Notes: generated by a model not told the origin, from the letters alone. A stretch of 64,000 nt of DNA from an uncultured Solibacteraceae bacterium (GCA_964529305.1 CAZGUX010000128.1:17347-81346); one strand, 5' to 3'; counted from the first letter of the stretch, positions 9,611-30,075 are shown. Made by a program: numbers and translations.

Positions 9611-9811
9611 CCGGCTGCCCCTTCCAAACCGCGGCCGGAAGGCCGCGGACCCGCGTTTGGAGCCGCGTTTTGCCTCCCCTACGCAAAACCCGTGCAACGA
9701 ACGGAAGGTCGGATCGCCGCGCCGGGCCGGCAGGGTCGCCAGTATCGGAGAATGCCCCTTCCCCTCCAACCCGATTCGCGCTATGGTCGAGGTGACAGGA
9801 GGGAGCCGCAG

Positions 9812-9988
9812 ATGCCTTCACGTCAAGCGCTATTCCTGATCGCGGCGGCGTTGTTGATGGGCGCGTCGGTCGCGCTCTCGGTGGCGTCGGCCGAACCCGA
9901 ACCCCGCCGGGGCCCCTTCCGCTTCGCGGCCTACGGCGAGTTGTTAGCCGGCCTGATGCTCGCCGGCCTCGGCCTGAGCCGCCTATAG
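9812..9988 (+). CDS. Small (58 aa) two-TM membrane protein.
   Basis: ATG at 9812 is preceded by a strong AGGAGGGA Shine-Dalgarno 7 nt upstream. The product MPSRQALFLIAAALLMGASVALSVASAEPEPRRGPFRFAAYGELLAGLMLAGLGLSRL has two hydrophobic helices. A GC hairpin lies downstream. Confidence 0.5.
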   Translation: MPSRQALFLIAAALLMGASVALSVASAEPEPRRGPFRFAAYGELLAGLMLAGLGLSRL

Positions 9989-10380
9989 CCTGGCGATCCC
10001 GTGTGCCCGGGGCACGTCTTCACTCCGTACCGAAGCCGGGGATGCCCTTGAGCCCACGGCGTAAAGCCGTGGGGTTGCCGATACCCTTCACTACTGCCGA
10101 CGGCCCACACCATCAGAGGCCCGACCGCAAGAGGGCAAGCGCTCGCGCTCGATTTTCGCACACGTGAATTCAGCGACGGGTTGCGCCTGACTCGATCCAC
10201 GACCGGCACGGAGGGGGTGCCTGTTTCTGGACGTCCTCCCACCCACATCCCTTGTTTCTTTATCTGGGGCGCTTGCGGGCGCGGCAAGGCGAACTCGCAG
10301 CGGTGACTTCTCGGGAAAATACAGAAACGCATGGCCGTCCTTCGGTGTTCTTGGTTCGCAAGGCCTGCGTAAGCGCTCCC

Positions 10381-12939
10381 CTACGGCACGACCCTCACCA
10401 CGACGTATCCAACCTTGCTCAGCACTTGCGGGATGCGCTGCACCAGGAGCCGGTCTTTGTTCCTGGTTTCCTGGGAGAGTTCCTTCCAGGGACGCAGGTC
10501 CTTGTGTACCTTGCGCGTCTTATCGGTGTCTTTTGCCCATTCCCATCCCGTATCGAGTTTCAGCGCCATCCACCGTTGGTGTTCTAGTTCCGCGAGTTTG
10601 TCGGCTTCCCCAGGGGTCATTCGGGCTGCTGTCTCTCCTCCCCGGGCAGGGACCATCACGCACCCAATTGCGGCCAGTTTCCTCGACATATCTCGAACGT
10701 TGGCCCGATTCTGCTCCTTCTCGTGTTCGGGAAGTTGCGCGTAGGGTCTCAATGAGCTGTGCGTTCTGGCCTCTTCTCTCGTTTCCGCTCCCCACTGGTA
10801 ACCCTGAGCCTTCAGTTCCTCGCAAAAGACCTCGTGAACCGATTCCGCAAGCCGTTCGACGACCTCGGAAGTCAGTTCCAGTTGTTGGACGAGCGCCTGG
10901 AATTCGACAGGGTTGACGTGAATGCTCATTTGCGGAACGTGGGGAAGACAGGACCGTTCAAAGCGCCGTTTGCCGGCAAGGCTGCTCATGGCGATGATCG
11001 ATTCCATGGAGCGGACGCCGTGCCTGTACTCGCCGATTTGCAGCAATGCCCGAAGCACTCCGTCGTCGATCTGCAAGCCCTGACGGGCTTCGAACAGGTG
11101 GCCGGCGTCGCGGCGGAGGAGGGTGTGCAACAGAATGGCGCGGCGGATCGCCGAATACGGATCAGCGCCTGGCGCCTGAGGATTGGGGCCCATCACATTG
11201 ATGTATCCCTTGAGCCGGCTGACGAAGTCCGGCCCCTTGGCCTGTTGGAACAAGCGCGTTCTGTCGGCGTCGTCTGAATGGCAGAACTCGGCCATGGTCT
11301 TGCTGATTCCGCCGGCGAACACAAAGATCGAGCGGCCAATCGGGTGCGAGAGTTCGCCTTCCTGGAAAAGACCATCCTGCATCGGGGCCAGGAAGTGTCG
11401 CAGCCATTCCGGGCGATTGTCCCTGTCGATCATGTCGAATTCGTCCCAGAACACAAGCGGAAGCTTACCCGAGAGGCCGATGTCGCGCACGCGGTGGAAG
11501 GCATGCACCAAATCCTCGGGGGAGCGGAACAGTGTGAGGTTGAAGGTAATGTCTTGAATCTCTCCGGGCAGGAGAGCCTTGGCGAGCTCCTTCACGCCAA
11601 ATGACTTGCCGGAGCCAGGAGGGCCAAAGACAGCAATCGAGAGCGGGCGCGCCAGCTTTTGGCTCACGTACTCGGCGACCAAGGCCCGAATGCCGCGGTA
11701 GCTCTCGATCTCCTGGCGATCCACGGCGAGCAGTTTTCCAAACTGCCCCACCGGGATGTCGGCAAGAACGGCTTCCGGCCCTAGGCGTACGATCGTCTCG
11801 GCAATGGGACCGAGGCCGCCGGCATGACGGTCGTGCAGGATGGTCCACAACCTGGAATTGCCGGCGAAACCGGGTGCCGGGACAGATGAGCGAGCGAATC
11901 GATGAGCCGGCCGCTCGATTTCAGAGACGATCCGTGCGGTAGGAAAGCGAAGATCCGCGGCCGAGGCGTTGGTTCCGGGATGGCCGTAGCCCTCGAGATG
12001 CAGTGCGCGCATTGCGGACAGACCGGCCTGAACGGCAAGGGCCATGTCCGCGTTGGCCGGATCTCGCGCCAGTTCCCTGACGATGGCGGCCGTGAGGCAG
12101 GTAGAGTATCCGATCATGCCGCCCTGGTGCAGGGCGAGCCACATCCCCTCGACTTCCCTGGGGGCAAAGACCAGTTCGAACGCGGGCGCCGAACGATCCT
12201 CGCCCGGCTTCCTGGTACTCAGGAATGCGCCCGCGGCGGGGAACGAGGTCACTGTGAAGGCGCACGACGACAGGGCATTGAGCTGAGGATTGAAGGTCAT
12301 CTCCCAAGCCAAGTCCTGGGCGGTGCGCTCCCAGGAGATCTCGCGGCTAATATGAACATTGGTCAGGCGCAGATCGTTGGCGGCCACGACGACAATCAAA
12401 CGTTCGCGATACCGTTCGACCAGGTGGTCGAACAGCGGCCCGCGGGCGATGGGGGCGCTCATCTTGAGCACAATCCACCGCGGCGGCGCGCCTTCCCCGA
12501 GGGGCCACGAAGAAGGGTCGCTGCGAAATCCCAGGTCCGCATCGTCGAGGACCACGATGTCCGGGTTCCCAGCGGGGTCCAGCTTCGGAGCCACCCGTGT
12601 GCCCGGGCGCCTGCCGCCGACACCCAGGAATTCCTTCACCCGCCAGGCGGGCTTGACATCTTTCTTCTCTGCGGGGAACAACGACCACAACGCATACGAT
12701 TCGGGAAGAGCGTGATCGGTCAAAGACGTGGCAAGGTCCGGCACGGTGGGTTGGGTGACCTGGAGTTCCAACTGGCTGCCGGCGCCGGCAGCTTCGATCA
12801 GCGCGGCCGACAGCGCTGCACCTCCTAGCTGTGAGTACGCGCAAGAGCAGGCCCGGCCCCCCGACAGATCTCCGGAGGATTGCGCGATGTGGCAGTCCAC
12901 GGTCAGGTCGCCGGCGACGAGCACTCGGGTTGAGGCCAT
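10381..12939 (-). CDS. Large multidomain AAA+ ATPase with an N-terminal Rossmann-like domain and two tandem C-terminal RyR domains.
   Basis: 852 aa with Walker A (GPPGSGKS) and Walker B (LVFWDEFD). The N-terminal ~400 aa show weak ribokinase/PfkB-like features (VLVAGDLTVD, DIVVLDD, LIVVVAANDLR). The C-terminus has two RyR-like repeats (EVFCEELKAQGYQWG..RPYAQLPEHEKEQNR and QRWMALKLDTGWEWA..RPWKELSQETRNKDR). It is transcribed divergently from the SLOG-SLATT gene across a 56-bp gap. Confidence 0.6.
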   Translation of the reverse strand: MASTRVLVAGDLTVDCHIAQSSGDLSGGRACSCAYSQLGGAALSAALIEAAGAGSQLELQVTQPTVPDLATSLTDHALPESYALWSLFPAEKKDVKPAWRVKEFLGVGGRRPGTRVAPKLDPAGNPDIVVLDDADLGFRSDPSSWPLGEGAPPRWIVLKMSAPIARGPLFDHLVERYRERLIVVVAANDLRLTNVHISREISWERTAQDLAWEMTFNPQLNALSSCAFTVTSFPAAGAFLSTRKPGEDRSAPAFELVFAPREVEGMWLALHQGGMIGYSTCLTAAIVRELARDPANADMALAVQAGLSAMRALHLEGYGHPGTNASAADLRFPTARIVSEIERPAHRFARSSVPAPGFAGNSRLWTILHDRHAGGLGPIAETIVRLGPEAVLADIPVGQFGKLLAVDRQEIESYRGIRALVAEYVSQKLARPLSIAVFGPPGSGKSFGVKELAKALLPGEIQDITFNLTLFRSPEDLVHAFHRVRDIGLSGKLPLVFWDEFDMIDRDNRPEWLRHFLAPMQDGLFQEGELSHPIGRSIFVFAGGISKTMAEFCHSDDADRTRLFQQAKGPDFVSRLKGYINVMGPNPQAPGADPYSAIRRAILLHTLLRRDAGHLFEARQGLQIDDGVLRALLQIGEYRHGVRSMESIIAMSSLAGKRRFERSCLPHVPQMSIHVNPVEFQALVQQLELTSEVVERLAESVHEVFCEELKAQGYQWGAETREEARTHSSLRPYAQLPEHEKEQNRANVRDMSRKLAAIGCVMVPARGGETAARMTPGEADKLAELEHQRWMALKLDTGWEWAKDTDKTRKVHKDLRPWKELSQETRNKDRLLVQRIPQVLSKVGYVVVRVVP

Positions 12940-12995
12940 GTCTCGACTATAAGCGATTGCATCGGATCGAGACGCATGGATATGCTCTCGTTGGT

Positions 12996-14699
12996 ATGGC
13001 CAGCGTTGACGACAGACCGCGGTTGGCGTTCCGGGTGGGAGTGACGGGGAAACGGAACCTGACCGAGCTCGACATGGATGCGATCCGGCCTCGCATTCGT
13101 GAGCTTCTCGCCGTCGTCAAAGGCGCCATGGAGGGCGAGGCAGCACGGTCGCACGGGGTCTATTCGGACGAGCCTCCGCTGTTGCGGGCGGTTTCTCCCC
13201 TGGCCGAGGGCGCGGACAGGGTTTTCGCCGAAGAAGCCCTCGTGCTTGGGTACACGCTGGAGGCCCCGCTGCCGTTCCATAGGGTCGAATACGCCGAGGA
13301 TTTTTCTGATTCAGCCAGCCGCGCAGCATTCGACGGGTTGATCGCCCAAGCCGCCGGCGTATTTGAACTGGATGGCCGGCGGGAATCCGAATCGGAACCG
13401 TACGAGACCGTGGGACGGGTGGTGCTGGATCACTGTGATCTTCTGATGGTCGTCTGGGATGGCAAACCCGCCGGCGGGAAAGGGGGGACCGCCCAGATCC
13501 TGGAGATGGCGCGGCAAAGGCAGATTCCCGTCGTTTGTATCGGTATCGCAGGACTTGCGGACAGGTTTTACTGGGCGGGAATGGAAGACGATCGTATGAC
13601 CCTCTCCGCCGAGGCACTTCATTTGGCCGTCGCACGCCTGGTTCGCCCCCCCTGGCTGTCCGGAATCAATCCCGATGACGCCGACATGAGCGGGTCGTAT
13701 GTGGGATCCGCCAGCGGGAAACCAGCGGTTCTTGGCGTGATCTGGTCCTGGTTCGTGAAAGGGATGTTGGTGGGCGTAGAAGTGGAGCCCACCAGAAAAG
13801 AGCAGATTCCGGACAACGGCTTCACCCCCCCGTATAAACTTTTCGACTCCATCACCAACCGCTTCGCGGGACTCTATCGGGGAGCGTTCCTGGCGAATTA
13901 CAGCCTGGGACTGGCGGCCGTCTGGTTCGCTCTCCTCGGATATGCCCATGAAGGCTACGGAAAACTGTGGCTGTGGAGCGAACTGGCGGCAATTGCGATC
14001 ATCCTGCTGCTGATCTTTCTGCTGGGCCGAAGGCGGTGGCACTTTCGCAGCATCGATTGCCGCTATCTGACGGAGCATTACCGGATCCTGTGCTTCATTT
14101 ATCCTCTCGGGCTGACGGCGCCACCCTTGAGGCTTCCGGCGCACCATCTTCACAGCGACGTACAACGGAGCTGGATGGAATGGCGGCTGCGCGCAAGCTT
14201 GCGCCAGGAGCCGATGCCTGCCGGGACGGTGAATGCGGCCGAGGTCCAGGGCCACTGTGCGCGGATTGTGGGTGAATGGATTGACGGCCAGATTACGTAC
14301 CACCAGCGAAATGAGGTTGGCCTGGAGCGTATCGAGAAGCGGCTCGACGGGTTGGTGTGGTGTTGCGTCAGCGCCGCGGCCGTCGCCTGCGTGCTCCACT
14401 TCTTCGTGCATGACCCAGCGGTTGCGCCGTGGCTGACGCTATGTGCCGCCGGATTTCCGGCCGCGGCCGCGGCGTGCCACGCGATCGCCACGCAAGGCGA
14501 GTTCCGGCGGTTGTCGGAGCGGTCAGGGGCCATGCACAACAGCCTCCGTGGGATCAGGACTCGCATCCAGCAACTCAACAGCTCTGGACAATTGACACTT
14601 GCCACCCTAAGGCGTGAGTGCGAGACTCTGGCCGCGCTGATGATCGAAGAGGTGGTGGATTGGCAGATCCTGTACAGGAAGCCGGTACCGCCGGGATAG
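12996..14699 (+). CDS. SLOG (SMF/DprA-LOG-like nucleotide sensor) domain fused to two C-terminal SLATT (DUF4231-like 2TM) modules. It is a predicted ligand-gated membrane effector.
   Basis: The N-terminal Rossmann-like domain carries DprA/LOG-type motifs (RVGVTGKRNL, SPLAEGADRVFAEEALVLGYTLEAPLPF, LLMVVWDGKPAGGKGGTAQILEMARQRQIPVVCIG). The C-terminal half has two copies of a 2TM module (LANYSLGLAAVWFALLGYA/LWLWSELAAIAIILLLIFLLG, then VWCCVSAAAVACVLHFFV/WLTLCAAGFPAAAAACHAIA). Each copy has the flanking aromatic/amphipathic helices typical of SLATT. I chose ATG 12996 because the longer ORF from 12831 would overlap the divergent AAA+ gene. Confidence 0.7.
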   Translation: MASVDDRPRLAFRVGVTGKRNLTELDMDAIRPRIRELLAVVKGAMEGEAARSHGVYSDEPPLLRAVSPLAEGADRVFAEEALVLGYTLEAPLPFHRVEYAEDFSDSASRAAFDGLIAQAAGVFELDGRRESESEPYETVGRVVLDHCDLLMVVWDGKPAGGKGGTAQILEMARQRQIPVVCIGIAGLADRFYWAGMEDDRMTLSAEALHLAVARLVRPPWLSGINPDDADMSGSYVGSASGKPAVLGVIWSWFVKGMLVGVEVEPTRKEQIPDNGFTPPYKLFDSITNRFAGLYRGAFLANYSLGLAAVWFALLGYAHEGYGKLWLWSELAAIAIILLLIFLLGRRRWHFRSIDCRYLTEHYRILCFIYPLGLTAPPLRLPAHHLHSDVQRSWMEWRLRASLRQEPMPAGTVNAAEVQGHCARIVGEWIDGQITYHQRNEVGLERIEKRLDGLVWCCVSAAAVACVLHFFVHDPAVAPWLTLCAAGFPAAAAACHAIATQGEFRRLSERSGAMHNSLRGIRTRIQQLNSSGQLTLATLRRECETLAALMIEEVVDWQILYRKPVPPG

Positions 14700-14868
14700 C
14701 GACCGGGAACCGGGCTGGAGGTGCCCGGCAGTCCGGCACGTGCGAAGGGCAACCGCTCAATGGCCTGGTGTGCCGGTCGAATTGCCCGGCAAGTCGAGCG
14801 CATGATACGTTGGGCTTCCGGCAACGAGGCGATTCTCGCGGAGCGGACCTCTTGCGTCCGGGAATGCG

Positions 14869-16107
14869 GTGACTACAAAAGGTGGATCTGGCGGGTGGCT
14901 GAAGCAAGTCGCCCGAAGACTGAACTGGCACAAGGCCGAGCGGAAGTCTTGCGCGAAGTGTGGTTCAAGCAGCGACGCCGAAGCGCGCCTCTGCTCCGCT
15001 TGTGGAGCACGGTTCCCCCACCAGGATGCGCGCTACGACGGGTTCATCAGCTACCGGCGCGACGGCGGCAGTCACGTCGCCAGTCTGCTGCAGTTGCTGC
15101 TCGAACGCGACCATGAGAAGCGGTTTTATCTCGACGTGGAGGAGTTGCAGGTTGGCCGCTTCGATGAGCAGTTGCTCGAGCGGATCCAATCGACTTCCAA
15201 CTTTGTCCTTGTTCTCACGGCACGATGTCTGGATCGCTGTACCGAAAAGCACGATTGGCTGAAACGCGAGATCCTTCATGCGATCACGACAGGGCGCAAC
15301 ATCATTCCCGTTCTCGTAGAGGACTTCCGTTTCCCGGGCGATGAAGTATTCAAGGACTTGCCGGATTCGATGCGGCTCCTCCCGAATCTCCAGGGAGTCC
15401 CTTACACGCACATTTACCGAGATGCCGCGGTCCGCAAGATCACGCAGTACCTGAGGGACGTCGCTCCGTTCGATGCTCTCGGGTCTGACCCAACCGCTAC
15501 CGGGCGCACGACCGGGGGAGGCTCCCAATCCGGACCTCCGCTCGATAACACTCCTGTGACCGCCGCGACCGCCGGAGCGATGCCCGCCTCGGTTGGAGGG
15601 AGCGACCCATCGCCGCGCAAGACGCCGAATCCGACTATCCAAGGCCGGAACCCGGACACCGTGCCACCCGAGTTCCCTGTTGAGCAAAGAACAATAGCGT
15701 CTCCCGCTACTCGATCGTCTTCGATTGACGTGGAGGGGGTTCCCCCGCCCGCGGTACCGACGATGTTGACACCGGAAGCGGCGCGAGCCAGGGTCCGGGC
15801 GGATTCGTGGCTGCTGCAAGTTCAGTCTGATCTTGCGTCCATCGATCACTCGGAGCACGAACCGAGTCTTGGAGCCGCGCGCATCTCGGGCCTCCGTACC
15901 GTGTCTGATCACGATGCTTCAGGCGCCGAGCCGCGATTCGGGTACGCCACGATTGCCCGCTCGTCCGTGAAAGACATCGGCGGGGCCCCAGAGCCCCGGT
16001 TCGGATTCGCTTCAGTCCAGCGTCGAGATGCTTTACGCGTGGCCGAGACGCCCAATGATCCGAGGTTCGGTTCGCTCTGCGTTCACCTGCTCAGCGACCA
16101 GAAGTGA
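14869..16107 (+). CDS. Zinc-ribbon + TIR domain protein (predicted NAD+-consuming signal-generating enzyme) with a disordered C-terminal tail carrying (E/D)PRFG repeats.
   Basis: An N-terminal CxxC..CxxC ribbon (CAKCGSS..CSACGARF) is followed by a canonical TIR core (YDGFISYRRDGGSHVASLL..FYLDVEELQVGRFDEQL..NFVLVLTARCL..HDWLKREILHAI..NIIPVLVEDF). The conserved catalytic-Glu position is retained (WLKRE). The C-terminal ~200 aa are low-complexity with three EPRFG/DPRFG repeats. The start is a GTG. Confidence 0.8.
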   Translation: MTTKGGSGGWLKQVARRLNWHKAERKSCAKCGSSSDAEARLCSACGARFPHQDARYDGFISYRRDGGSHVASLLQLLLERDHEKRFYLDVEELQVGRFDEQLLERIQSTSNFVLVLTARCLDRCTEKHDWLKREILHAITTGRNIIPVLVEDFRFPGDEVFKDLPDSMRLLPNLQGVPYTHIYRDAAVRKITQYLRDVAPFDALGSDPTATGRTTGGGSQSGPPLDNTPVTAATAGAMPASVGGSDPSPRKTPNPTIQGRNPDTVPPEFPVEQRTIASPATRSSSIDVEGVPPPAVPTMLTPEAARARVRADSWLLQVQSDLASIDHSEHEPSLGAARISGLRTVSDHDASGAEPRFGYATIARSSVKDIGGAPEPRFGFASVQRRDALRVAETPNDPRFGSLCVHLLSDQK

Positions 16108-16111
16108 AACC

Positions 16112-17368
16112 ATGTTCAAGATCCAAACGATTCCATTCGAATGCCCGAAACGCAGCAAGGTCGGCTATGAGCTATCGATCGAGCTCATCGATTTTTCCGC
16201 GGACGCTCACGAGGTGTTCATCGTGGGACCTGATGGGCAGGGGGTCCCCCACCGGATCAGTGATGGTTGCGTGCGGATCGAGCACCGCGATGGGCCAGGT
16301 GTCGCGCGTTTTCAGGCGGTGGTCCGTAATAAGCCCGAGGTACTTGAAGAGGGGGGCGGTTCTCGCGTTCCGGTTCTGAAGCCCAGTGAAGCCAGAGACG
16401 TGCTCACGATTGAGGTTTTGGTGCTCCCTGAGACGGAACCATCTATCCGGGATGCCGTGGAGGCGATCGTTTCGTCAATGAGTATTGGTATCAAAGGTGG
16501 ATCGATGACCGTCACGGCTCCCGATCTCGGAGTGGAGGGATTCCGGCTTCAAAAATCCTTTGGGGAGGCGGCCCCGGCCGAAGTGCTTCGCAGGCTTGCG
16601 CTCGACCGGGGCGACGCAACCAGTGTCCTCCGTTGCCTGTATCTGCTGTTCGACCTGGCGGGCCGGTTCCCCCTTGTTCCGTGGCTGGCGCCGTCGATCT
16701 TCGCCGTCCTGGGTGATCTGGTCGGAAGCCTGTCCAGTTCCTTCATGTTGAAGCAAGTTCTGGATGCGTTCGAGCGCATCGCTTTGGCGCCGAAGGATCA
16801 GTGGCTTTATCTCATTCGAACACTTCAGGAGCAGCAACTCGAACGCAGTCGGACCATTGGACTGCTCCGGCGAGTGACGCCGAGGGAATACCGACTCCAG
16901 ACCGCCGCCATCGTTCTGGAAGTCTGCGGTGTAGTCGCGGACGGCAGAGGCGAAGCGTGTAATCTCTTCAACGACTTCTCGTATCGCCAAGCTGCCGAAG
17001 AGGTTCTGGAGTGGATGGAGGTGGACCGTTATGTGATTTCGGAGGGGTGCCAGTTTCTGCGAGCCATCGATTACCGAAGTGCACTACCCAGACTACGGAC
17101 CCTGTTGGACCAACCTGGGGACCGGCCAGGAGACGAGGAGATCGTCAAATGCCTAGCGTCCTGGCAGGACCACCCCTCGATCGCGATGATGGTGAAGAAG
17201 ATCGCCGAAACCTCCGATTACACGGCCGGCAGCATGGTGAAACATCTCCTGCGAATTGGCGCCGAAGTCATCCCCGCGATCCAAGAGGTTCAACGAAAGT
17301 CCGGACCTGCCAAGGCCAAGTCCATAGCAGACTCCCTCGCTTCGCATGCTCCATCGGCGAAAGCCTGA
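16112..17368 (+). CDS. Hypothetical protein with C-terminal HEAT/ARM-like repeats, third gene of the TIR cassette.
   Basis: Its ATG lies 5 nt after the TIR stop (translational coupling). The 419-aa product has no recognisable catalytic motifs. The C-terminal region has HEAT-like repeats (IVKCLASWQDHPSIAMMVKKIAETSD.., MVKHLLRIGAEVIPAIQEV). Confidence 0.55.
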   Translation: MFKIQTIPFECPKRSKVGYELSIELIDFSADAHEVFIVGPDGQGVPHRISDGCVRIEHRDGPGVARFQAVVRNKPEVLEEGGGSRVPVLKPSEARDVLTIEVLVLPETEPSIRDAVEAIVSSMSIGIKGGSMTVTAPDLGVEGFRLQKSFGEAAPAEVLRRLALDRGDATSVLRCLYLLFDLAGRFPLVPWLAPSIFAVLGDLVGSLSSSFMLKQVLDAFERIALAPKDQWLYLIRTLQEQQLERSRTIGLLRRVTPREYRLQTAAIVLEVCGVVADGRGEACNLFNDFSYRQAAEEVLEWMEVDRYVISEGCQFLRAIDYRSALPRLRTLLDQPGDRPGDEEIVKCLASWQDHPSIAMMVKKIAETSDYTAGSMVKHLLRIGAEVIPAIQEVQRKSGPAKAKSIADSLASHAPSAKA

Positions 17369-17980
17369 AGCACCTGTGCCTGTTGTCATCGCACCCGTCC
17401 AAAGGTGAACCCAGACGGAGAAGAATTTAGCCTCGAACCGCGGGACCAGGCTGCCAGGCGGAAGGCCTGGAGCCACAAACGCCACCTGTTAAATCCGCAG
17501 CTACGGCTAGATTGGCTCGAGCTTCGCTCACGTCGCCCGGTCAGCTTCTGCTGGATCACAAACGTCGCGTCTGGGTTCACTTCAAGTGTTTGGTGCGCGA
17601 AGCTCGAGTAGCAGTGGAATCACAAGCATGTCGCTCCCTTTCCTCGGTCACTCCGCCCTTCCCCTTGGCCCCTCAACCTAGTCCGCCGCAACGTGCGACA
17701 CTGATTCCCAGCAAACTCACCGTGCCCGCTCCCAACAACCATCAGCGTGCGTTCCGGTGAGTGGCCCTCTGCGTCGACACCCGTGAATGGGTGGAATTTA
17801 CGCCCAATTTCAGTCCAGCGAACACGATAAACCGGATTGGTTCTCGGGCTGAACGACGATCAACCCTCGACCGGAAACCTGGTCGTCGCACTGAGTCTCG
17901 CATGGAGACCTCCTGTTTTTCCCTCCCGCTCAGCCGGGCATCGAATCGTTCGGGCCGCCGGTGGCCGGCCATTTCCCACG

Positions 17981-24020: not shown

Positions 24021-25046
24021 TTGCGAGCTTCCACAGAGCCCGGGGTGTGGATCAGCCCAAGATGCCCGCTCGCCCTCCGCTATGAGGACGGGCTGTTTCG
24101 GCAAATTAACCAGGAAGTCACGGAGAGCTTTCTGGCCTTCCGCAAGGGTGGGCTGGAAACGGGCGGACTTCTGTTCGGACGGGTGGTCGGGGACGAGATC
24201 TCCCTGATCGCGCATCGGCCGATCGCGTGCGAGCACGCGCTGGGACCCGGCTTCGCACTCTCCGAAGGCGACCGGGAGCGTCTGGCGCAGTTGCTGCGCG
24301 AATGGCCGCGCGACCCCGCTCTGAACGGACTGGAATTGGTGGGCTGGTATCGGTCCCGCACTCGCGGCCCGCTCACACCGGCGCCGGACGACCTGTCCTT
24401 TCATCAGGAGTTCTTTCCACAACCGTGGCAATCGCTGCTGGTCTTGAAGCCAGACCTTGGTTTTCCGACGCGCGCAAAGGTCTTTTTTCCATCCGAAGAA
24501 GGAGTCCTCGATCCGGACGGCGGCTTTGACGACATCGAACTCGCTGCCGTGAAACCTCGTCCACGCGCGCAGGATGAAATTCCAATGATGATGCCGGAAG
24601 CCGCAGCCTCCGTGCCCGCCGCGATGCCGGTCGAGGATGACGGGGAGAATGGAGTGCCGGAGCACCGGAAGCACACGTCCCGTGTGTGGATGCTCTTCTC
24701 GTCCGTTGCCGCGGGACTGCTGGCGCTTTCGTTCTGGTGGCCGCCCACCCGCAAGCTGGGCCTCGAAATCACGGACCGGAAGGGACAGCTTCACATCCGG
24801 TGGGACCAAAGGTCCCACTGTGTTGTCGGAGCGCGCGGCGGGCGTCTCGAGATCAAAGACGGCGCTTCGCGCGTCACCTCCGAATTCGACTCCGCCGGCC
24901 TCCGCGACAGCAGCGTCTACTATGTGCGGCGATCCGGAGAGGTCGAAGTCCTGCTCGTGGTCGAGACCAGCCAGGGCGCGGTCGGAGAGCGTATGAGGCT
25001 CGCCGGACCGGGGCCTGCCCGCCAAGTCCTCTTTGACTCTCGTTAA
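24021..25046 (+). CDS. Membrane protein with an N-terminal catalytically dead MPN/JAB-like domain, one TM helix and a C-terminal beta-rich domain.
   Basis: The MPN-like fold signature is present (ETGGLLFGRVVGDEISLIAH..LELVGWYRSRTRG..APDDLSFHQEFF..LLVLKPD), but the JAMM His/Ser/Asp ligands are replaced (HSHP becomes RSRT). A TM helix (WMLFSSVAAGLLALSFWW) follows, then a beta-rich domain. It lies immediately upstream of cas10. Confidence 0.5.
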   Translation: MRASTEPGVWISPRCPLALRYEDGLFRQINQEVTESFLAFRKGGLETGGLLFGRVVGDEISLIAHRPIACEHALGPGFALSEGDRERLAQLLREWPRDPALNGLELVGWYRSRTRGPLTPAPDDLSFHQEFFPQPWQSLLVLKPDLGFPTRAKVFFPSEEGVLDPDGGFDDIELAAVKPRPRAQDEIPMMMPEAAASVPAAMPVEDDGENGVPEHRKHTSRVWMLFSSVAAGLLALSFWWPPTRKLGLEITDRKGQLHIRWDQRSHCVVGARGGRLEIKDGASRVTSEFDSAGLRDSSVYYVRRSGEVEVLLVVETSQGAVGERMRLAGPGPARQVLFDSR

Positions 25047-25085
25047 ATGCAGTTGCTAGACTATTGACTTCTCAAGCCGCTAGGC

Positions 25086-26546
25086 ATGTCCGAACAGATT
25101 CTCCTGAAAGGTAAGTTGCTGGGCATCGAGGAGTTCTTAACTTCTCCGCACAGCCGTCAGGGCGCATGGAGCGACGAAGGCGTCGTCATCGGGCGCGCGC
25201 AGTGGATCACCCTCCTCAGCGAGGTGTTGCCCCGGGCGTTGCTCGCCGAGTTGGGCCTGGCGCGCATTCTGCTGGGGTCGAGCGGGGGCGGGCAGTTCCT
25301 GGTGGTGCTGCCGGACGCGTCCGTCGATGCCGCAAATCAATTTCTACGCGCCGCGGCCGCCGGCATCGCGCACCTCAGCGGAGGGCATATCGAGTTGGTG
25401 TGGGCGTCCACGGAGAATCTCGGCGACTGGACCGTGGTCCGAAAGCGGCTCAACGATCAACTGCACCGCTGGACGGGAACCCCGGTGACGAATGCGCAGC
25501 CGGAGTTTTTTCAGCCGTTTGTCGAGCCCGAGCGGGAGGACACTTCCTCCTATTTTGCCGAGACCCTGGGGACCCGCATCCGCGAGGCCGCGTCGGTCGG
25601 CTGGTCGCCCGACGCCCCCGGCCGCATTTGCGCCAACGAAGGCAAGCACACCTGGCGGCTCACGCCGAACATCTCGAGCGATGGCATTACCGTGTCGCGG
25701 CACGCCGCGCCGGGCGACGACGCGGGGTCGGCCGCCGATGCCCGAACCCTGGCCACTCGCGCGACCGGGCGGCCGCTGTGGGGTGTGTTGCGCGGCGACG
25801 TCGATGATTTCGAGTTCCGCCTCCGCCGGGTCCAAAGCATTGAGGAGTACGTGCCGCTGTCGGTGCTCTACAAGCAGTTTTTCGCCGGGGAGCTGGAAGT
25901 GCTCTGCTCCCTACCGGAGTTCTGGCGGAGCGTCACCATCCTCTATTCGGGCGGCGACGACTTCGCGGTGTACGGAGCATGGGACTCGCTGGTGGCTCTG
26001 GCGCGCGAGATGCAGCGGCTGTTCCACCGCTTTACGGAAGAGAACCTGAAAGAGTTCCCCGGAGCCGAAGGCAAGACCATCTCGATGGCGATCGCCGTGG
26101 CCGAACCCGAAGAAACTTCGCTGGCCGCGGTCTATCAGGAGGCCGGGCGGCTGCTGTCCCGAGCCAAGGCCGCCGACAAAGACTGCATCTATCTGCTGGG
26201 CCGCGTCCTCGAGTGGAAGCAACTCGCCGACGCGGCCGAACTCAAAGACGCGATTACGCGCATGATTTCCGACCGCCGCGCCTCCCGGCATGTTGTGCCG
26301 GAGTTGCTCAGCCTGTACGGAAAGATCGCTGCGGCGGGATCGGGACCGGCCGACACCGCCGTGGAACGCGTCTGGCGCTTTCAGCGCCGCCTCCATGTGA
26401 TTCTGGGAGGAGGCAGGGAAAAGGAATTTCAGAAGCTGCGTACGCATCTCTCCGGCGAACTCGCCGGACGGAAGTCCACTCATGTGAAACTCCGTCCGTC
26501 GGGTCTGGTCGCGCTCGAGTGGGCGCGGCTGACCGTGGGCGAATAG
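25086..26546 (+). CDS. cas10: Compact Cas10/Csm1-like cyclase subunit with two palm domains and an intact GGDD motif, but no HD nuclease domain and no zinc finger.
   Basis: 486 aa. Palm1 is degenerate (ILLGSSGGGQFLVVLPD). Palm2 is canonical Cas10 (ILYSGGDDFAVYGAWDSLVALAREMQRLF..GKTISMAIAVAEPEETSLAAVYQEAGRLLSRAKAADKDCIYLLGRVLEWKQL). It is followed by csm2-csm3-csm4-csm5 in type III-A order. There is no H..HD motif and no 4-Cys treble clef. Confidence 0.75.
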   Translation: MSEQILLKGKLLGIEEFLTSPHSRQGAWSDEGVVIGRAQWITLLSEVLPRALLAELGLARILLGSSGGGQFLVVLPDASVDAANQFLRAAAAGIAHLSGGHIELVWASTENLGDWTVVRKRLNDQLHRWTGTPVTNAQPEFFQPFVEPEREDTSSYFAETLGTRIREAASVGWSPDAPGRICANEGKHTWRLTPNISSDGITVSRHAAPGDDAGSAADARTLATRATGRPLWGVLRGDVDDFEFRLRRVQSIEEYVPLSVLYKQFFAGELEVLCSLPEFWRSVTILYSGGDDFAVYGAWDSLVALAREMQRLFHRFTEENLKEFPGAEGKTISMAIAVAEPEETSLAAVYQEAGRLLSRAKAADKDCIYLLGRVLEWKQLADAAELKDAITRMISDRRASRHVVPELLSLYGKIAAAGSGPADTAVERVWRFQRRLHVILGGGREKEFQKLRTHLSGELAGRKSTHVKLRPSGLVALEWARLTVGE

Positions 26547-26567
26547 GCGACGACCGAGTGAATCTCT

Positions 26568-27050
26568 ATGGCTGACCAGCAAAGACCACCAAGGCCTCCC
26601 CGTGAGGGGCGGGAGCCGCGCGAGCAGTTCGGGCCGGGCGGAGGCAACCGGGACCGGGATCGCGACCGGGATCGGGATCGCGACCGGCGGGACCGGCGTC
26701 CGGAAGGTCCTCCGGAAATCGACCTCGAGAAGCTGATCGCCGATAGCCTGTATCTGGACAATCAGGCCCACGGCGTCGTCAGCCGCATGCGCGATATGGA
26801 TTCGGGCACCAAGAGCCAGTTGCGGCGGCTCTACAATGCCGTCCGGCGCGCCTGCCGCGCTCCGGAATCCGAACGCCAGCATCAGTTCGTGATGCTGCGC
26901 GCGCGGCTGGCGTATACCATCGCACGTCACTCCCTGCGCAGTCTGGATCAATTGGAAAAGCTGCTGCTTCAGGTGACGCGCAAGAACGATCCGCGCGGTT
27001 ACGAACGCTTCAAGGATTTGTTTGAAGCCATCGTCGCCTATAACGAATAG
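26568..27050 (+). CDS. csm2: Csm2 (Cas11 small subunit) with an N-terminal Arg/Asp dipeptide-repeat extension.
   Basis: The alpha-helical core matches Csm2 family motifs (TKSQLRRLYNAVRR, LRARLAYTIARHS, FKDLFEAIVAY). The first ~45 aa are low-complexity, ending in RDRDRDRDRDRDRRDRR. Confidence 0.8.
   Translation: MADQQRPPRPPREGREPREQFGPGGGNRDRDRDRDRDRDRRDRRPEGPPEIDLEKLIADSLYLDNQAHGVVSRMRDMDSGTKSQLRRLYNAVRRACRAPESERQHQFVMLRARLAYTIARHSLRSLDQLEKLLLQVTRKNDPRGYERFKDLFEAIVAYNE
26640..26700 (+). repeat. Tandem GAC/CGG/GAT/CGC hexanucleotide-type coding repeat that produces the (RD)n tract of Csm2.
   Basis: gaccgggatcgcgaccgggatcgggatcgcgaccggcgggaccggcg lies in-frame within csm2. Confidence 0.7.
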
Positions 27051-27107
27051 GCGCCGTGCCAGGCGAGGCTCTCGAGAGCCCGCCACTGTGAGTAACGAGG
27101 AATTTCC

Positions 27108-27941
27108 ATGAGCGCGCATACGACGCAAACCCAGCTCAAACTGGTTGGCAAACTGATTATCGAAGGGGAACTGCACTGCGAGACCGGCCTGCATGTCGGC
27201 GCGGGCAAGGGCTCTCTGGAGATCGGGGGGTCGGACAATCCCGTCATCAAGGACGCCTTTGGGCGGCCCTACGTCCCCGGCAGTTCGCTGCGAGGGAAAC
27301 TCCGGAGCCTGATCGAGCACGCTCACGGCCTCACCTCCCCCGCCGATCTGGTGTACCTTTCCAAGCGCAAGGGCCAGGAGGTGCGCATCCACCAGAGCGA
27401 CAAGCCCGACGACGAAGTGTGCATCCTGTTCGGCCGCAATCCGGGCCGTATGGAGCGAGTCTCCGGCGATCCGGTAGAATCCAGCGCGGCCACGCCGGCG
27501 CGGCTGGCGGTGTATGACGCGCCGCTCGACCCCGACAGCATCACGCCCCAGATGCGCGAGAACCTGGACGACGAGTTGACCGAGGTGAAGAGCGAAAACG
27601 CGATCGACCGGATCACGTCGCAGGCCAATCCGCGCACTTTGGAGCGCGTGCCGGCCGGGGCGCGGTTCATCGTGCGCATGGTGTTGGACGTCCTGTGCGA
27701 GGAGGACGCGCCGCTGGTGGCGCGGGTGCTGGAAGGCATGCGCCTGCTCGAGGACGACGCGCTGGGCGGAGGCGGGTCTCGCGGCAGCGGCCGCGTCCGT
27801 TTCGCCAACCTGCGCGTGGTCTGGCGCGGCCGAGGCTACTACGCGGGAGAAGGCCAGGACAAAGAACTGATTGCAGGCGCCGACGTGGCAGCGGTCCAGG
27901 CGCTGTTCCGCGACGCCGGCCCCTCGTACATCCAGGAATGA
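27108..27941 (+). CDS. csm3: Csm3 (Cas7-family RAMP backbone subunit and target RNase).
   Basis: RAMP G-rich loop and Csm3 N-terminal signature (GLHVGAGKGSLEIGGSDNPVIKDAFGRPYVPGSSLRGKLRSLIE), including the catalytic Asp position (DNPVIKD). Confidence 0.9.
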   Translation: MSAHTTQTQLKLVGKLIIEGELHCETGLHVGAGKGSLEIGGSDNPVIKDAFGRPYVPGSSLRGKLRSLIEHAHGLTSPADLVYLSKRKGQEVRIHQSDKPDDEVCILFGRNPGRMERVSGDPVESSAATPARLAVYDAPLDPDSITPQMRENLDDELTEVKSENAIDRITSQANPRTLERVPAGARFIVRMVLDVLCEEDAPLVARVLEGMRLLEDDALGGGGSRGSGRVRFANLRVVWRGRGYYAGEGQDKELIAGADVAAVQALFRDAGPSYIQE

Positions 27942-28975
27942 CCCCAGCCGCTGTCGTCAAATTCCGCCCGACCACGCCGTGGCGCCTCGGCGACGATTCC
28001 GGCCTGCGCGACCGCGTGCAGTTGTTCTATCGCAGCGATGCGCTGTACTCCGCGGTCACGCATGCCATGAGCGCGTTCGGGAGGCTCGACGACTGGCTGG
28101 CCGCCACCGCCCGGGCTTCCGTTCCCGAGGTAGCGTTCAGTTCCGTGTTTCCCATGCAGGGCGACCTGGTGTTCGTGCCCCCGCCCCGCACCATCTGGCC
28201 TCCGGCTCTTTCTCCCAAGGTGCGATGGAAAGGGGCTAGTTTCGTTCCTCTCGACGTCATCGACGCGTTGTTGTCCGGGGACTCCCTCGACGAGACCGTG
28301 TGGGCGGTCGACGGCGCCAGCGAGTGCCTGATTCCGGTGGGCCGCTACGGCCCGTTTCGCATCGCCAATCGCACCGCGGCGGCGGTGGACCGGTTGACCG
28401 GGGCGCTGGACGCCCACCGCGCCGCCTGCCTGGAGTTCGCGGCCGGCGCCGGTATGTGGTGCGTGGTCTCCTTTGCGTCCGAAGAGTCGAGCGCGCGTTG
28501 GCTGGGCCCCGTGCAAACAGCTTTCCGCTACCTGGCCGACACCGGATTGGGCGGAGAGCGTTCCCGCGGTTGGGGACGCTTCGACAACCTGGAGTTCCTG
28601 GAGGGCGACTTGTCCGCTCTCCTTCTGCCTCGCTCCACCCAGGCCTCCGAACCGGCGGCGCCTTCCGTGGAACGCCTGTTTTGGCTGTTATCGTTGTTTG
28701 TTCCCTCGGCCGGCGACGTAGTGCGTTGGGACGGCGGCAGCTATCAGGTGGTGGCGCGGGCGGGGCGTGTCGATTCCGCGGTGTCGTCGGGTGGCCTCAA
28801 GAAATTGCAGAACATGGTGACCGAGGGCTCGGTGCTGGCGGCGGGCGCGCCGTTGATCGGCAGCGCGCCCAACGTCGCTCCGGATGACTTCCCTCATCCC
28901 GTCTATCGCTGCGGCTTTGCGGTGGCCGTGCCGCTTCCGGCCCCGCCTGCTGCCGCTCCCCAGGTGGTGTCATGA
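27938..28975 (+). CDS. csm4: Csm4 (Cas5-family RAMP).
   Basis: Its internal ATG overlaps the csm3 stop (ATGA). The RAMP glycine-rich loop GLGGERSRGWGRF is present. The gene sits in the csm4 position of the operon. Confidence 0.8.
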   Translation: MTPAAVVKFRPTTPWRLGDDSGLRDRVQLFYRSDALYSAVTHAMSAFGRLDDWLAATARASVPEVAFSSVFPMQGDLVFVPPPRTIWPPALSPKVRWKGASFVPLDVIDALLSGDSLDETVWAVDGASECLIPVGRYGPFRIANRTAAAVDRLTGALDAHRAACLEFAAGAGMWCVVSFASEESSARWLGPVQTAFRYLADTGLGGERSRGWGRFDNLEFLEGDLSALLLPRSTQASEPAAPSVERLFWLLSLFVPSAGDVVRWDGGSYQVVARAGRVDSAVSSGGLKKLQNMVTEGSVLAAGAPLIGSAPNVAPDDFPHPVYRCGFAVAVPLPAPPAAAPQVVS

Positions 28976-30075
28976 GATACCGGGTCACCGCGCTCACTCC
29001 TCTGCTGGTGGGTGACGGCCACCGCCTGTCGCCTATCGACTACATGGTGTGGAAGGATCACGTCAACGTCCTGGACCAGACCCGCATCTTCAAGCTGCTG
29101 GCCAAGGGACCGCGGCTCGAAGGGTATTTGACCCAGCTCAAGAGGGCCGACAAACTCGACTTTGCGTCGTGGGGTGGCTTCGCGCAGAACTTCGCCGACC
29201 GGAGAATCCCATTCGAGCATCCTTCGTGTTCGAAGTATTGGGACCGGGCAACGGGCGAATCGGTCCACATTCCGACCTTTTCGAGCGGCCTTCACGGCCC
29301 GTATCTGCCAGGCAGCGCGCTGAAAGGCGCGCTCCGCACGGGAGTGCTGTACGCCTCGGTCCGGGACGGTTCGCTGAAGCCGGTGCTGGAACGTTTCGAA
29401 GGAGACCGGCCGCCGCGCCATCCGGCTGAAGCGCTGGAAGACGACGTGCTCGGCCGGGCCGGCAACAGCCGCATGCGCTTCGTGCGCACGGGCGACTCCA
29501 AGCCCGTCGACCGGTCGATGATGAAGGTCTATCTGCTGCGGCTTTCGACCGTCGTTTCTCAGAAGGGCCCCGCCTGGACTCTTGGATGGAAACAAAGCCC
29601 ACGCGGCGCCGTCGACTCCCGCCGCGTGGAGGACTCCACGCCGTGGTTCGCGGAGATGGCCGCGCCGGGTTCCACGTTCGAGGGCGACTGGCAGGAACGC
29701 TCGTCCAATTCCCGCGCCAAGATTTTCCAAGGCGTCAACCAGTACGCGGCCGCGGTCCTGGCGATGCACCGGCAGTACGGGGAAGCCACCGGACTGACCG
29801 CGGTGGCAGAGGCGGCGGGCCGCCTGGCCGAACGAGTCGCGGGCCTTCCCTCGGAACAGGCGTGCCTGCTTCCCCTCGGATGGGGCGGCGGCCTCTTCAG
29901 CAAGACCGCCTGGGTGGAGAAGGACTCCGCGGACTACCGGGCGATTCTCGGCAAGCTCCCGTTCTACTCGCGGGCGGTCTCCTCGGGACTCCCGTTCCCC
30001 AAAACCCGCCGCATCGTTTTTGAGGGAGACCGGCCCTCCACCATCCCGGGCTGGGTTCTGTTGGAAGTCGCCTGA
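28972..30075 (+). CDS. csm5: Csm5 (Cas7-family RAMP).
   Basis: It overlaps the csm4 stop. The RAMP motif YLPGSALKGALRTGVLY and the G-rich segment LGWGGGLFSKT are present. It is the last gene of the Csm module. Confidence 0.8.
   Translation: MRYRVTALTPLLVGDGHRLSPIDYMVWKDHVNVLDQTRIFKLLAKGPRLEGYLTQLKRADKLDFASWGGFAQNFADRRIPFEHPSCSKYWDRATGESVHIPTFSSGLHGPYLPGSALKGALRTGVLYASVRDGSLKPVLERFEGDRPPRHPAEALEDDVLGRAGNSRMRFVRTGDSKPVDRSMMKVYLLRLSTVVSQKGPAWTLGWKQSPRGAVDSRRVEDSTPWFAEMAAPGSTFEGDWQERSSNSRAKIFQGVNQYAAAVLAMHRQYGEATGLTAVAEAAGRLAERVAGLPSEQACLLPLGWGGGLFSKTAWVEKDSADYRAILGKLPFYSRAVSSGLPFPKTRRIVFEGDRPSTIPGWVLLEVA

Follow-up and report, generated by a model that had tools for sequence, protein, structure and literature searches.

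In bacteria, plants and animals alike, ADP-ribose signals made by TIR domains are central to immunity, and a link between cyclic ADP-ribose (cADPR) and the ryanodine receptor (RyR) has long been debated. Here we describe an AAA-RyR gene, i.e., one coding for an AAA+ ATPase that ends in RyR domains (from here on the target gene), found in a stretch of 64,000 nucleotides from an uncultured Solibacteraceae bacterium (GCA_964529305.1, CAZGUX010000128.1:17347-81346); the whole of this stretch is referred to as the window. The target gene lies beside genes for a SLOG-SLATT and a TIR protein; the systems to compare are the Thoeris systems and the RyR proteins of phages. Thoeris type I combines the TIR protein ThsB with the SIR2-SLOG protein ThsA, type III has several TIR proteins and a SLOG effector, and type VII a TIR protein and the SLATT effector ThsH, with cADPR as the signal. 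The TIR and SLATT pair of type VII has been verified experimentally, and the SLOG domain of ThsA binds 3'cADPR (bioRxiv 10.64898/2025.12.03.692087). As for the phage proteins, RyDEP (Pfam PF02026) binds and cleaves 2'/3'-cADPR through H75, W78, H100 and D117, with H75 and D117 as the catalytic dyad, W78 stacking against the adenine and H100 touching the phosphates (PMC13232231, a preprint of May 2026). Other phage homologs bind the 2'/3'-cADPR signals with nanomolar affinity and do not cleave them, and the same holds for cleavage by the sponge-type homologs, which are highly similar to RyDEP; this work covers viral proteins only (PMC13232231).

Taken together, the sequences make it somewhat probable that the target protein is a host AAA+ protein that works with a SLOG-like partner in immune signalling of the ADP-ribose type, its RyR domain binding the signal. 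The target family is functionally undescribed, while the system as a whole is of a known kind, the Thoeris-like nucleotide signalling built on TIR, SLOG and SLATT. We found no description of the family in the searchable papers, and RyR, ribokinase and PfkB go unmentioned in the accessible comparative-genomics papers on TIR/SLOG/SLATT systems; the founding SLOG/SLATT paper (Burroughs et al. 2015) lies outside both searches.

The C-terminal part of the target protein (amino acids 685-852) is a tandem RyR domain, matched by Pfam PF02026 in two stretches with 92.3 bits against a cut-off of 27.4 (E-value 2.3e-26), and PDB profiles of RyR1, RyR2 and RyR3 match its C-terminal third at ca. 1e-24. In the AlphaFold2 model, built on 86 homologs (predicted local distance difference test, pLDDT, 87.3; predicted TM-score 0.81), residues 690-850 have a pLDDT of ca. 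90 and the two repeats appear as one pseudo-symmetric helical domain. The best Foldseek match of this part was Repeat12 (R12) of human RyR3, which has been crystallised with AMP-PCP, ADP, ATP or dantrolene, and the TM-scores to human RyR3 R12 and to the Bt-hRyR chimera were 0.60-0.66 (normalised to target length). Repeat 2 aligns without gaps to the RyR proteins of Gordonia phage ChisanaKitsune (gp58) and Sinorhizobium phage Phosso, with the same four pocket residues in all of them, and the spacing of its tetrad (0, +3, +25, +42) and the residues themselves are those of H75/W78/H100/D117 in RyDEP, a mapping made from the published RyDEP residue numbers and from the alignment to the other phage RyR proteins rather than to RyDEP (phage DyoEdafos) itself. 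Among 86 sequences of the family H787 and D829 were invariant and W790 was conserved in at least 90%; counts of the tetrad are lower bounds, since a pattern of fixed spacing misses repeats with insertions. Repeat 1 carries Asn where RyDEP has its catalytic Asp, and this asymmetry is the dominant one in the family (H-F-H-N in repeat 1, H-W-H-D in repeat 2). Judged by these residues, repeat 2 keeps a RyDEP-like pocket.

The link to a SLOG partner was seen in the genomic context, which we sampled in 80 loci of relatives with flanks of 10 kb, the counts by gene offset being made on 75 of them. A homolog of the window SLOG-SLATT protein was detected by tblastn within 10 kb in 47 of the 80 loci, nearly always through its N-terminal ca. 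180 residues. The SLOG match was directly downstream on the same strand, with a gap of 6-114 nt, in 31 loci, and in 6 others it abutted or overlapped the end of the AAA-RyR gene; these 37 loci span several phyla and archaea. Several of the gene pairs, as called from open reading frames (ORFs), overlap by ca. 4 nt, which suggests coupled translation. Finally, in 5 of the 80 loci (L067, L068, L071, L073 and L079) AAA-RyR and SLOG are fused, the latter at the C-terminus, in a single ORF of 1,072-1,115 amino acids. One arrangement has the AAA-RyR gene followed by a stand-alone SLOG gene (ca. 190 amino acids) and then by a protein of ca. 600 amino acids with transmembrane (TM), TrkA_N and RyR parts (TM-TrkA_N-RyR); in another a SLOG-SLATT gene of ca. 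580 amino acids follows, like that of the window but co-directional. Divergent adjacency as in the window was also found in L037. The conserved partner of the AAA-RyR family is a SLOG domain, not TIR.

Operonic and fused partners have in common the motifs GVTGHR (more generally GVTGxR), SxLAEGADR and WDG..GGT, nearly all of which are kept in the window protein (SPLAEGADR), and their invariant or nearly invariant polar residues are H19, R20, E71, D74, R75, D155 and the GGT. Weak Pfam matches to YAcAr, YpsA and DprA (best E-value 0.003) suggest that the domain is SLOG-like, and YAcAr-type SLOG domains have been predicted by Aravind's group to use NAD+ (PMC7824862). The SLATT part of the window protein matched NCBIfam SLATT_1 at 2e-4, below the cut-off, and homologs of the protein carry PF18181/PF14015 and are annotated at source as DUF1273 or 'SMODS and SLOG-associating 2TM effector'.

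TIR genes are enriched around the target relatives, although the partners vary among loci and are sometimes absent. With iterated profiles, a TIR or DUF4062 gene was found within three genes of the target relative in 46 of 75 loci, and 69 of the 71 calls of TIR-like genes held up against Pfam. The TIR-like share of genes was 15-23% at offsets 1-2 on both sides and at +3, and 7% at -3; as an internal control, it was at most 5% farther out and ca. 1.5% beyond 6 kb. The types found were TIR-WD40, TIR-TM-beta-propeller and DUF4062-NACHT/STAND-TPR/WD40. The trio of the window (AAA-RyR, SLOG-SLATT and TIR) recurs in L035, L038, L052, L053 and L070, which come from different phyla. The window TIR protein itself had no tblastn homolog in the 80 loci. 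It has an N-terminal zinc ribbon, its long tail of low complexity closes with three (E/D)PRFG repeats, and the W-L-K-R-E motif of its TIR core fits the usual position of the catalytic Glu; it is likely the signal synthase of the local module.

Other neighbours were classed by per-domain profiles, since RyR domains occur in several types of them, and include NUDIX, RelA_SpoT-TPR-SLOG, RelA_SpoT-RyR and TM-TrkA_N-RyR proteins. RelA_SpoT-like nucleotide pyrophosphokinases take the place of other partners in some loci: one is fused to RyR repeats beside a NUDIX gene (L084:4365-7369), and another is fused to TPR and a second, LSDAT-like SLOG domain (L001:12704-14770; also L009 and L010). The third gene of many operons, near SLOG and TIR, codes for N-terminal TM helices, TrkA_N/RCK and C-terminal RyR repeats (L014:5509-7332; also L016, L018, L022, L023, L027, L039, L056, L058 and L061), a product that looks ion-channel-like from its domains and has either N or D at the +42 position of the RyR tetrad. 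The NUDIX, RelA_SpoT and TM-TrkA_N-RyR neighbours fit a chemistry of ADP-ribose and nucleotides. Counting all of them, 63 of the 75 loci have one or more signalling partners no farther than three genes away. A mirror-tree comparison gave r = 0.51 between the identity matrices of the target and SLOG and r = 0.51 between those of the target and the nearest TIR, values that do not discriminate between the two partners and may reflect shared taxonomy.

A preliminary description of this locus, made from the sequence, had presented the target gene either as a fourth component or regulator of the TIR system or as an independent NTPase-based defence gene in the same island. The former holds as far as the association goes, given the SLOG adjacency and fusions, the TIR and DUF4062 genes and the recurrence of the trio, with the correction that the conserved partner is SLOG and not the TIR cassette; the fusions, together with the gene pairs that abut or overlap, contradict the latter. 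Co-occurrence with TIR/SLOG genes in other genomes was found as proposed, i.e., in the 80 loci the orthologs were not scattered away from such genes. The same description had divided the protein into a weakly PfkB-like N-terminal domain, a complete AAA+ module and two C-terminal RyR repeats, and fold and motifs bear out all three domains. Only the fold of the N-terminal claim stands, there being no PfkB signature in the sequence, and the word "giant" overstated a protein of 852 amino acids. The length of the ORF, its divergent orientation and the distance of 56 bp to the SLOG-SLATT gene proved exact, both genes having ATG starts.

The AAA+ part of the model shows an alpha/beta core with a helical lid. 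Its motifs are GPPGSGKS (439-446, Walker A), VFWDEFD (496-502, Walker B), FAGGxS (541-546, sensor 1), the Arg finger R575 and the sensor 2 residue R643, all invariant or nearly so across the family alignment, together with a conserved hairpin motif, FLAPMQDG-F (516-525), ahead of sensor 1. Pfam AAA (PF00004) gave 19.4 bits for the window protein, below the gathering score of 21.2, and some relatives exceed this threshold (e.g., P0297 with 25.8 bits). By fold, the module is nearest to the ligand-regulated bacterial enhancer-binding proteins (bEBPs) and the Clp-type motors. The N-terminal domain has the ribokinase/PfkB fold, and yet there was no Pfam PF00294 match at E<=0.1 and no PDB profile match, hhalign against Escherichia coli RbsK gave a probability of 0.07, and the NXXE and DTxGAGD kinase motifs were not recognisable by eye. 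All the tests at the level of sequence having failed, the relationship to PfkB is one of fold only. It is probably a module for ligand binding, either non-catalytic or re-purposed, and judging from its fold it may bind a ribose or nucleoside moiety. The window copy is the most divergent of the 86 aligned members, deviating in 45 of 321 conserved columns (median 8), and the deviations are mostly in this N-terminal domain, where residues that hardly vary elsewhere in the family are lost (W16C, N17H, loss of the W-x-ADD insert, H79P, H80E, D122P, W170F and D259A), with the AAA+ and RyR motifs intact. The pattern of these losses suggests an altered or relaxed N-terminal pocket in the window lineage.

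The family is large. A search of 1.84 billion cluster representatives gave 2,676 clusters at 50% identity that match the family profile at E<=1e-30, and species-representative genomes, bacterial and archaeal, yielded at least 512 matches. These include Chloroflexota, Acidobacteriota, Planctomycetota, Actinomycetota, Gemmatimonadota, Chlorobi-type bacteria, Proteobacteria and methanogenic or halophilic archaea, and the family is found mostly in Chloroflexota and Acidobacteriota of soils and sediments with complex lifestyles, the two phyla that also provide the best relatives of the window protein. Full-length relatives at 47-53% identity are abundant. Since no relative was found among the viral contigs of IMG/VR, the family is host-encoded. 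Among the 149 best representatives, 119 have the architecture PfkB-AAA-RyR, 21 have no RyR and 8 have an additional C-terminal SLOG. The members without RyR (P0280, P0285, P0286, P0296 and others, ca. one seventh of the best representatives) end just past the AAA+ lid, so that the PfkB-AAA core has to have a function independent of the RyR pocket.

The features of the locus are listed in Table 1. The start of the SLOG-SLATT gene at ATG 12996 agrees with the lengths of its homologs (551-588 amino acids) and with the position of the N-terminal GVTGxR, and therefore the gap to the target gene, which is head-to-head with it, is the one given in the table. The preliminary description had also raised a promoter in this gap, which our scan did not bear out: there was no match to the sigma-70 consensus in 9800-17600, a result that is weakly informative for an acidobacterial-type genome, and no clear Shine-Dalgarno sequence upstream of the start codon of either gene. 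What we did see is an inverted repeat of 7 bp, GTCTCGA (12940-12946) and TCGAGAC (12967-12973), separated by 20 nt, which could be an operator common to the two divergent genes.

Table 1. Features of the AAA-RyR locus in the window, with positions counted from its first nucleotide.
Feature	Coordinates	Strand	Evidence
Target gene: PfkB-fold domain, AAA+ ATPase and tandem RyR (Repeat12-type) domain, 852 amino acids	10381..12939	-	ORF and translation, ATG start; full-length homologs at 47-53% identity; AlphaFold2 model, pLDDT 87.3
N-terminal domain, amino acids 1-395, ribokinase/PfkB fold without recognisable kinase motifs	11755..12939	-	Fold
AAA+ module, amino acids 396-680	10900..11754	-	Walker A/B, hairpin motif, Arg finger, sensor 2
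RyR repeat 1, amino acids 685-765, pocket H702/F705/H727/N744	10645..10887	-	Pfam RyR; alignment with phage RyR proteins
RyR repeat 2, amino acids 772-852, pocket H787/W790/H812/D829	10384..10626	-	Gapless alignment with phage RyR proteins
Divergent intergenic region, 56 bp, presumably with both promoters	12940..12995	.	Sequence
SLOG-SLATT gene, 567 amino acids: SLOG-like N-terminal ca. 200 amino acids, multi-TM SLATT C-terminal part	12996..14699	+	Weak profiles, homolog annotations, shared motifs
Zn-ribbon-TIR protein, 412 amino acids	14869..16107	+	Pfam TIR_2 5.6e-7, 30.5 bits vs. cut-off 28; weak PADLOC TIR matches
419-amino-acid gene, begins 1 nt past the TIR stop codon	16109..17368	+	ORF

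The 419-amino-acid gene has no Pfam, NCBIfam or PADLOC match and no tblastn homolog in the 80 loci; its membership of the local module is uncertain, and it may be a local sensor or an unrelated passenger. Downstream of the target gene, an ORF of 133 amino acids (9931-10332) was discarded as a gene, having neither matches nor homologs in the 80 loci, and the genes that flank the cluster in the window likewise gave no tblastn homologs there. Some 8 kb from the cluster there is a set of type III CRISPR-Cas effector genes (24021-30075, + strand), with a short Cas10 of 486 amino acids (only palm2 and Csm1_B in Pfam), a RAMP, a Csm4-like protein and a second RAMP, preceded by an ORF of 341 amino acids without family match. 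Type III systems likewise use nucleotide signals, and two signalling systems would be near each other in the window.

As to how the module might work, the TIR protein would make an ADP-ribose-derived signal from NAD+, and the SLOG-SLATT protein would be a membrane effector gated by this signal, a role proposed because TIR plus SLATT is a verified Thoeris (type VII) and SLOG binds 3'cADPR in ThsA. The Repeat12-type domain of the target would bind the same signal in the H787/W790/H812/D829 pocket and may hydrolyse it, and occupancy of the pocket would be coupled to the AAA+ ring, which would in turn act on the SLOG partner. More generally, the target and SLOG pair would sit in nucleotide-signalling conflict modules whose variable parts are the TIR/DUF4062 sensor or synthase, RelA/SpoT-like, NUDIX and TM-TrkA_N-RyR proteins. 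For the direction of the regulation we favour a governor, which would consume the signal, set a threshold or reset the system, because the Asp of repeat 2 is invariant and because the membrane effectors already have sensor domains of their own, and a role as positive transducer is nearly as likely.

Several observations weigh against this defence signalling reading as a whole. The tetrad does not by itself establish catalysis, because the sponge-type homologs of RyDEP do not cleave. With 21 of 149 representatives devoid of RyR, the conserved core is PfkB-AAA and RyR an add-on. The SLOG assignment rests on weak profile matches and source names, and the nearest relatives of the window SLOG-SLATT protein (P0125 and P0137, at 47-55% identity) are solitary, so the effector can exist without AAA-RyR; in L081-L083 such relatives lie among sigma-54 activators, Pup ligase genes and hydrolases, with no TIR or AAA-RyR gene within 8 kb. 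There was no recognised partner in 12 of the 75 loci, although some of these are short contigs or have genes missed by the ORF caller. An identity of ca. 50% across phyla is unusually high for fast-evolving defence genes, and neither PADLOC nor NCBIfam has a model for the target protein (the single sub-threshold PADLOC match, mad8, covers only the P-loop). In the window itself the copy is an outlier of the family that has lost conserved N-terminal residues, the gene is divergent from SLOG-SLATT instead of operonic with it, and the cluster is bordered by ordinary metabolic or housekeeping genes.

There are rival readings as well. In its complete form, the positive role would have RyR sense the TIR/SLOG signal and activate the AAA+/PfkB-fold part as an effector that damages or amplifies, which may happen by burning ATP, by modifying nucleotides or by assembling or opening SLATT or TM-TrkA_N-RyR, with the SLOG partner itself as a possible signal generator. 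We hold this to be possible but tentative. The core pair looks self-sufficient where it occurs without TIR, with SLOG only (8 loci) or with SLOG and TrkA_N (5 loci), the invariant polar residues of the SLOG partner look enzyme-like, its weak matches include YpsA and the YAcAr type predicted to use NAD+ (PMC7824862), and the ATPase has intact motifs in a fold close to ligand-regulated motors. Yet the PfkB-fold domain shows no recognisable enzymatic motif of an effector, the SLATT and TM-TrkA_N-RyR effectors of many loci bring their own sensors, and the +42 D, mixed N/D in the channel-like proteins, is invariant in repeat 2 of the target family, a hint of chemistry beyond sensing. That the RyR domains are instead homotypic adaptors to the other RyR proteins of a locus (TM-TrkA_N-RyR, RelA_SpoT-RyR), and not ligand pockets, seems very improbable. 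RyR does occur on three protein types within the same loci, and the single-repeat proteins (RyDEP and the Bacteroides thetaiotaomicron protein of the PDB 3NRT family) are homodimeric, but the two repeats of the target already pair within the molecule in the model, the residues conserved in the family are the ligand-contacting ones, and a second RyR protein is missing from the window and from many other loci.

It is unlikely, though less so, that the target has nothing to do with immunity and regulates, in housekeeping or development, NAD+/ADP-ribose metabolism or membrane ion flux, sensing a metabolite through the RyR and SLOG pockets and using its AAA+ ring to remodel a TrkA_N-type channel or a SLATT protein. 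Such a regulator would explain a fixed architecture at 47-53% identity across bacterial phyla and archaea, the lack of a PADLOC match, the housekeeping flanks, the complex lifestyles of the soil and sediment Chloroflexota and Acidobacteriota that mostly carry it, and the RCK/TrkA_N channel-like partners. Against it, TIR, DUF4062-STAND/NACHT-WD40/TPR and SLATT predominate among the neighbours, and these are hallmarks of conflict systems (PMC7159879), and TIR with SLATT is the verified type VII Thoeris (bioRxiv 10.64898/2025.12.03.692087). We find it a little harder still to believe in an independent NTPase-based defence or stress gene that shares islands with TIR/SLOG without functional coupling. 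Divergent transcription in the window, the nearest SLOG-SLATT relatives that occur without AAA-RyR and the loci without recognised partners would agree with it; the SLOG fusions (5 of 80 loci, 8 of 149 representatives), the 37 loci from several phyla and archaea with SLOG abutting or directly downstream on the same strand, and the sharp decay of TIR density with distance from the target relative do not.

Should the preferred reading, a SLOG-partnered AAA+ protein with a signal-binding RyR domain, be right, the family would be a conserved component new to Thoeris-like signalling, either a host governor of the signal, comparable to the type III CRISPR ring nucleases, or a sensor-motor, and it would give a function to many proteins annotated only as 'RyR domain-containing protein'. 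It would also offer a prokaryotic setting in which the link between cADPR and the ryanodine receptor can be tested, and could shed light on where the animal RyR domain came from. H787A and D829N in the pocket and E500Q in the ATPase are clear point mutants. A wider idea, which we put forward as doubtful speculation, is that prokaryotic R12 could be a host receptor for the cyclic ADP-ribose made by TIR/SLOG, carried on the AAA+ governor or transducer and on TM-TrkA_N-RyR, that it could be the source of the animal RyR domain and of its link to cADPR, and that RyDEP could be a captured copy of it.

The target protein differs from the enzymes and motors that it resembles by fold. To the PfkB/ribokinase kinases of pseudouridine, ribose, adenosine and nucleosides it has no detectable sequence similarity, NXXE/GAGD being unrecognisable, and unlike bEBPs and Clp/Hsp100/HslU it has no GAFTGA sigma-54 loop, DNA-binding domain or protease partner; by profiles its sequence is only marginally near classical AAA. 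The neighbourhood of TIR, DUF4062-STAND, WD40/TPR, SLOG, SLATT, NUDIX and RelA/SpoT is that of the NTP-dependent, nucleotide-centric conflict systems predicted by Aravind and co-workers, which are also common in multicellular or filamentous lineages, whereas RyR, ribokinase and PfkB are unmentioned there (PMC7159879). With Thoeris, the window would share the logic of a signal synthase beside a signal-gated effector, in its TIR gene next to SLOG-SLATT, but no described type has an AAA+, PfkB-fold or RyR component. The 2025 systematic Thoeris survey, text and supplements, contains no RyR or PfkB term, and in NCBIfam the target protein matches no Thoeris component and the TIR protein is far below threshold (17.6 bits vs. 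220). Animal RyR R12 is the best match in structure and sequence for the C-terminal 170 amino acids and takes adenine nucleotides and dantrolene in the equivalent pocket; the target differs in not being part of an ion channel, although related loci do encode the channel-like TM-TrkA_N-RyR proteins. Finally, RyDEP and the other viral RyR proteins have the same Repeat12-type fold and the same H-x2-W...H...D spacing as repeat 2. RyDEP is small, single-repeat, homodimeric, viral and anti-defence, while the target is host-encoded, with tandem repeats (Asn in repeat 1) at the end of a PfkB-fold-AAA+ protein, and its binding of the signal, with possible cleavage, is a prediction. Binding and cleavage of TIR-type signals by RyR/Repeat12 domains are known only in phage proteins (PMC13232231), and the target family places the same pocket on a host AAA+ ATPase.

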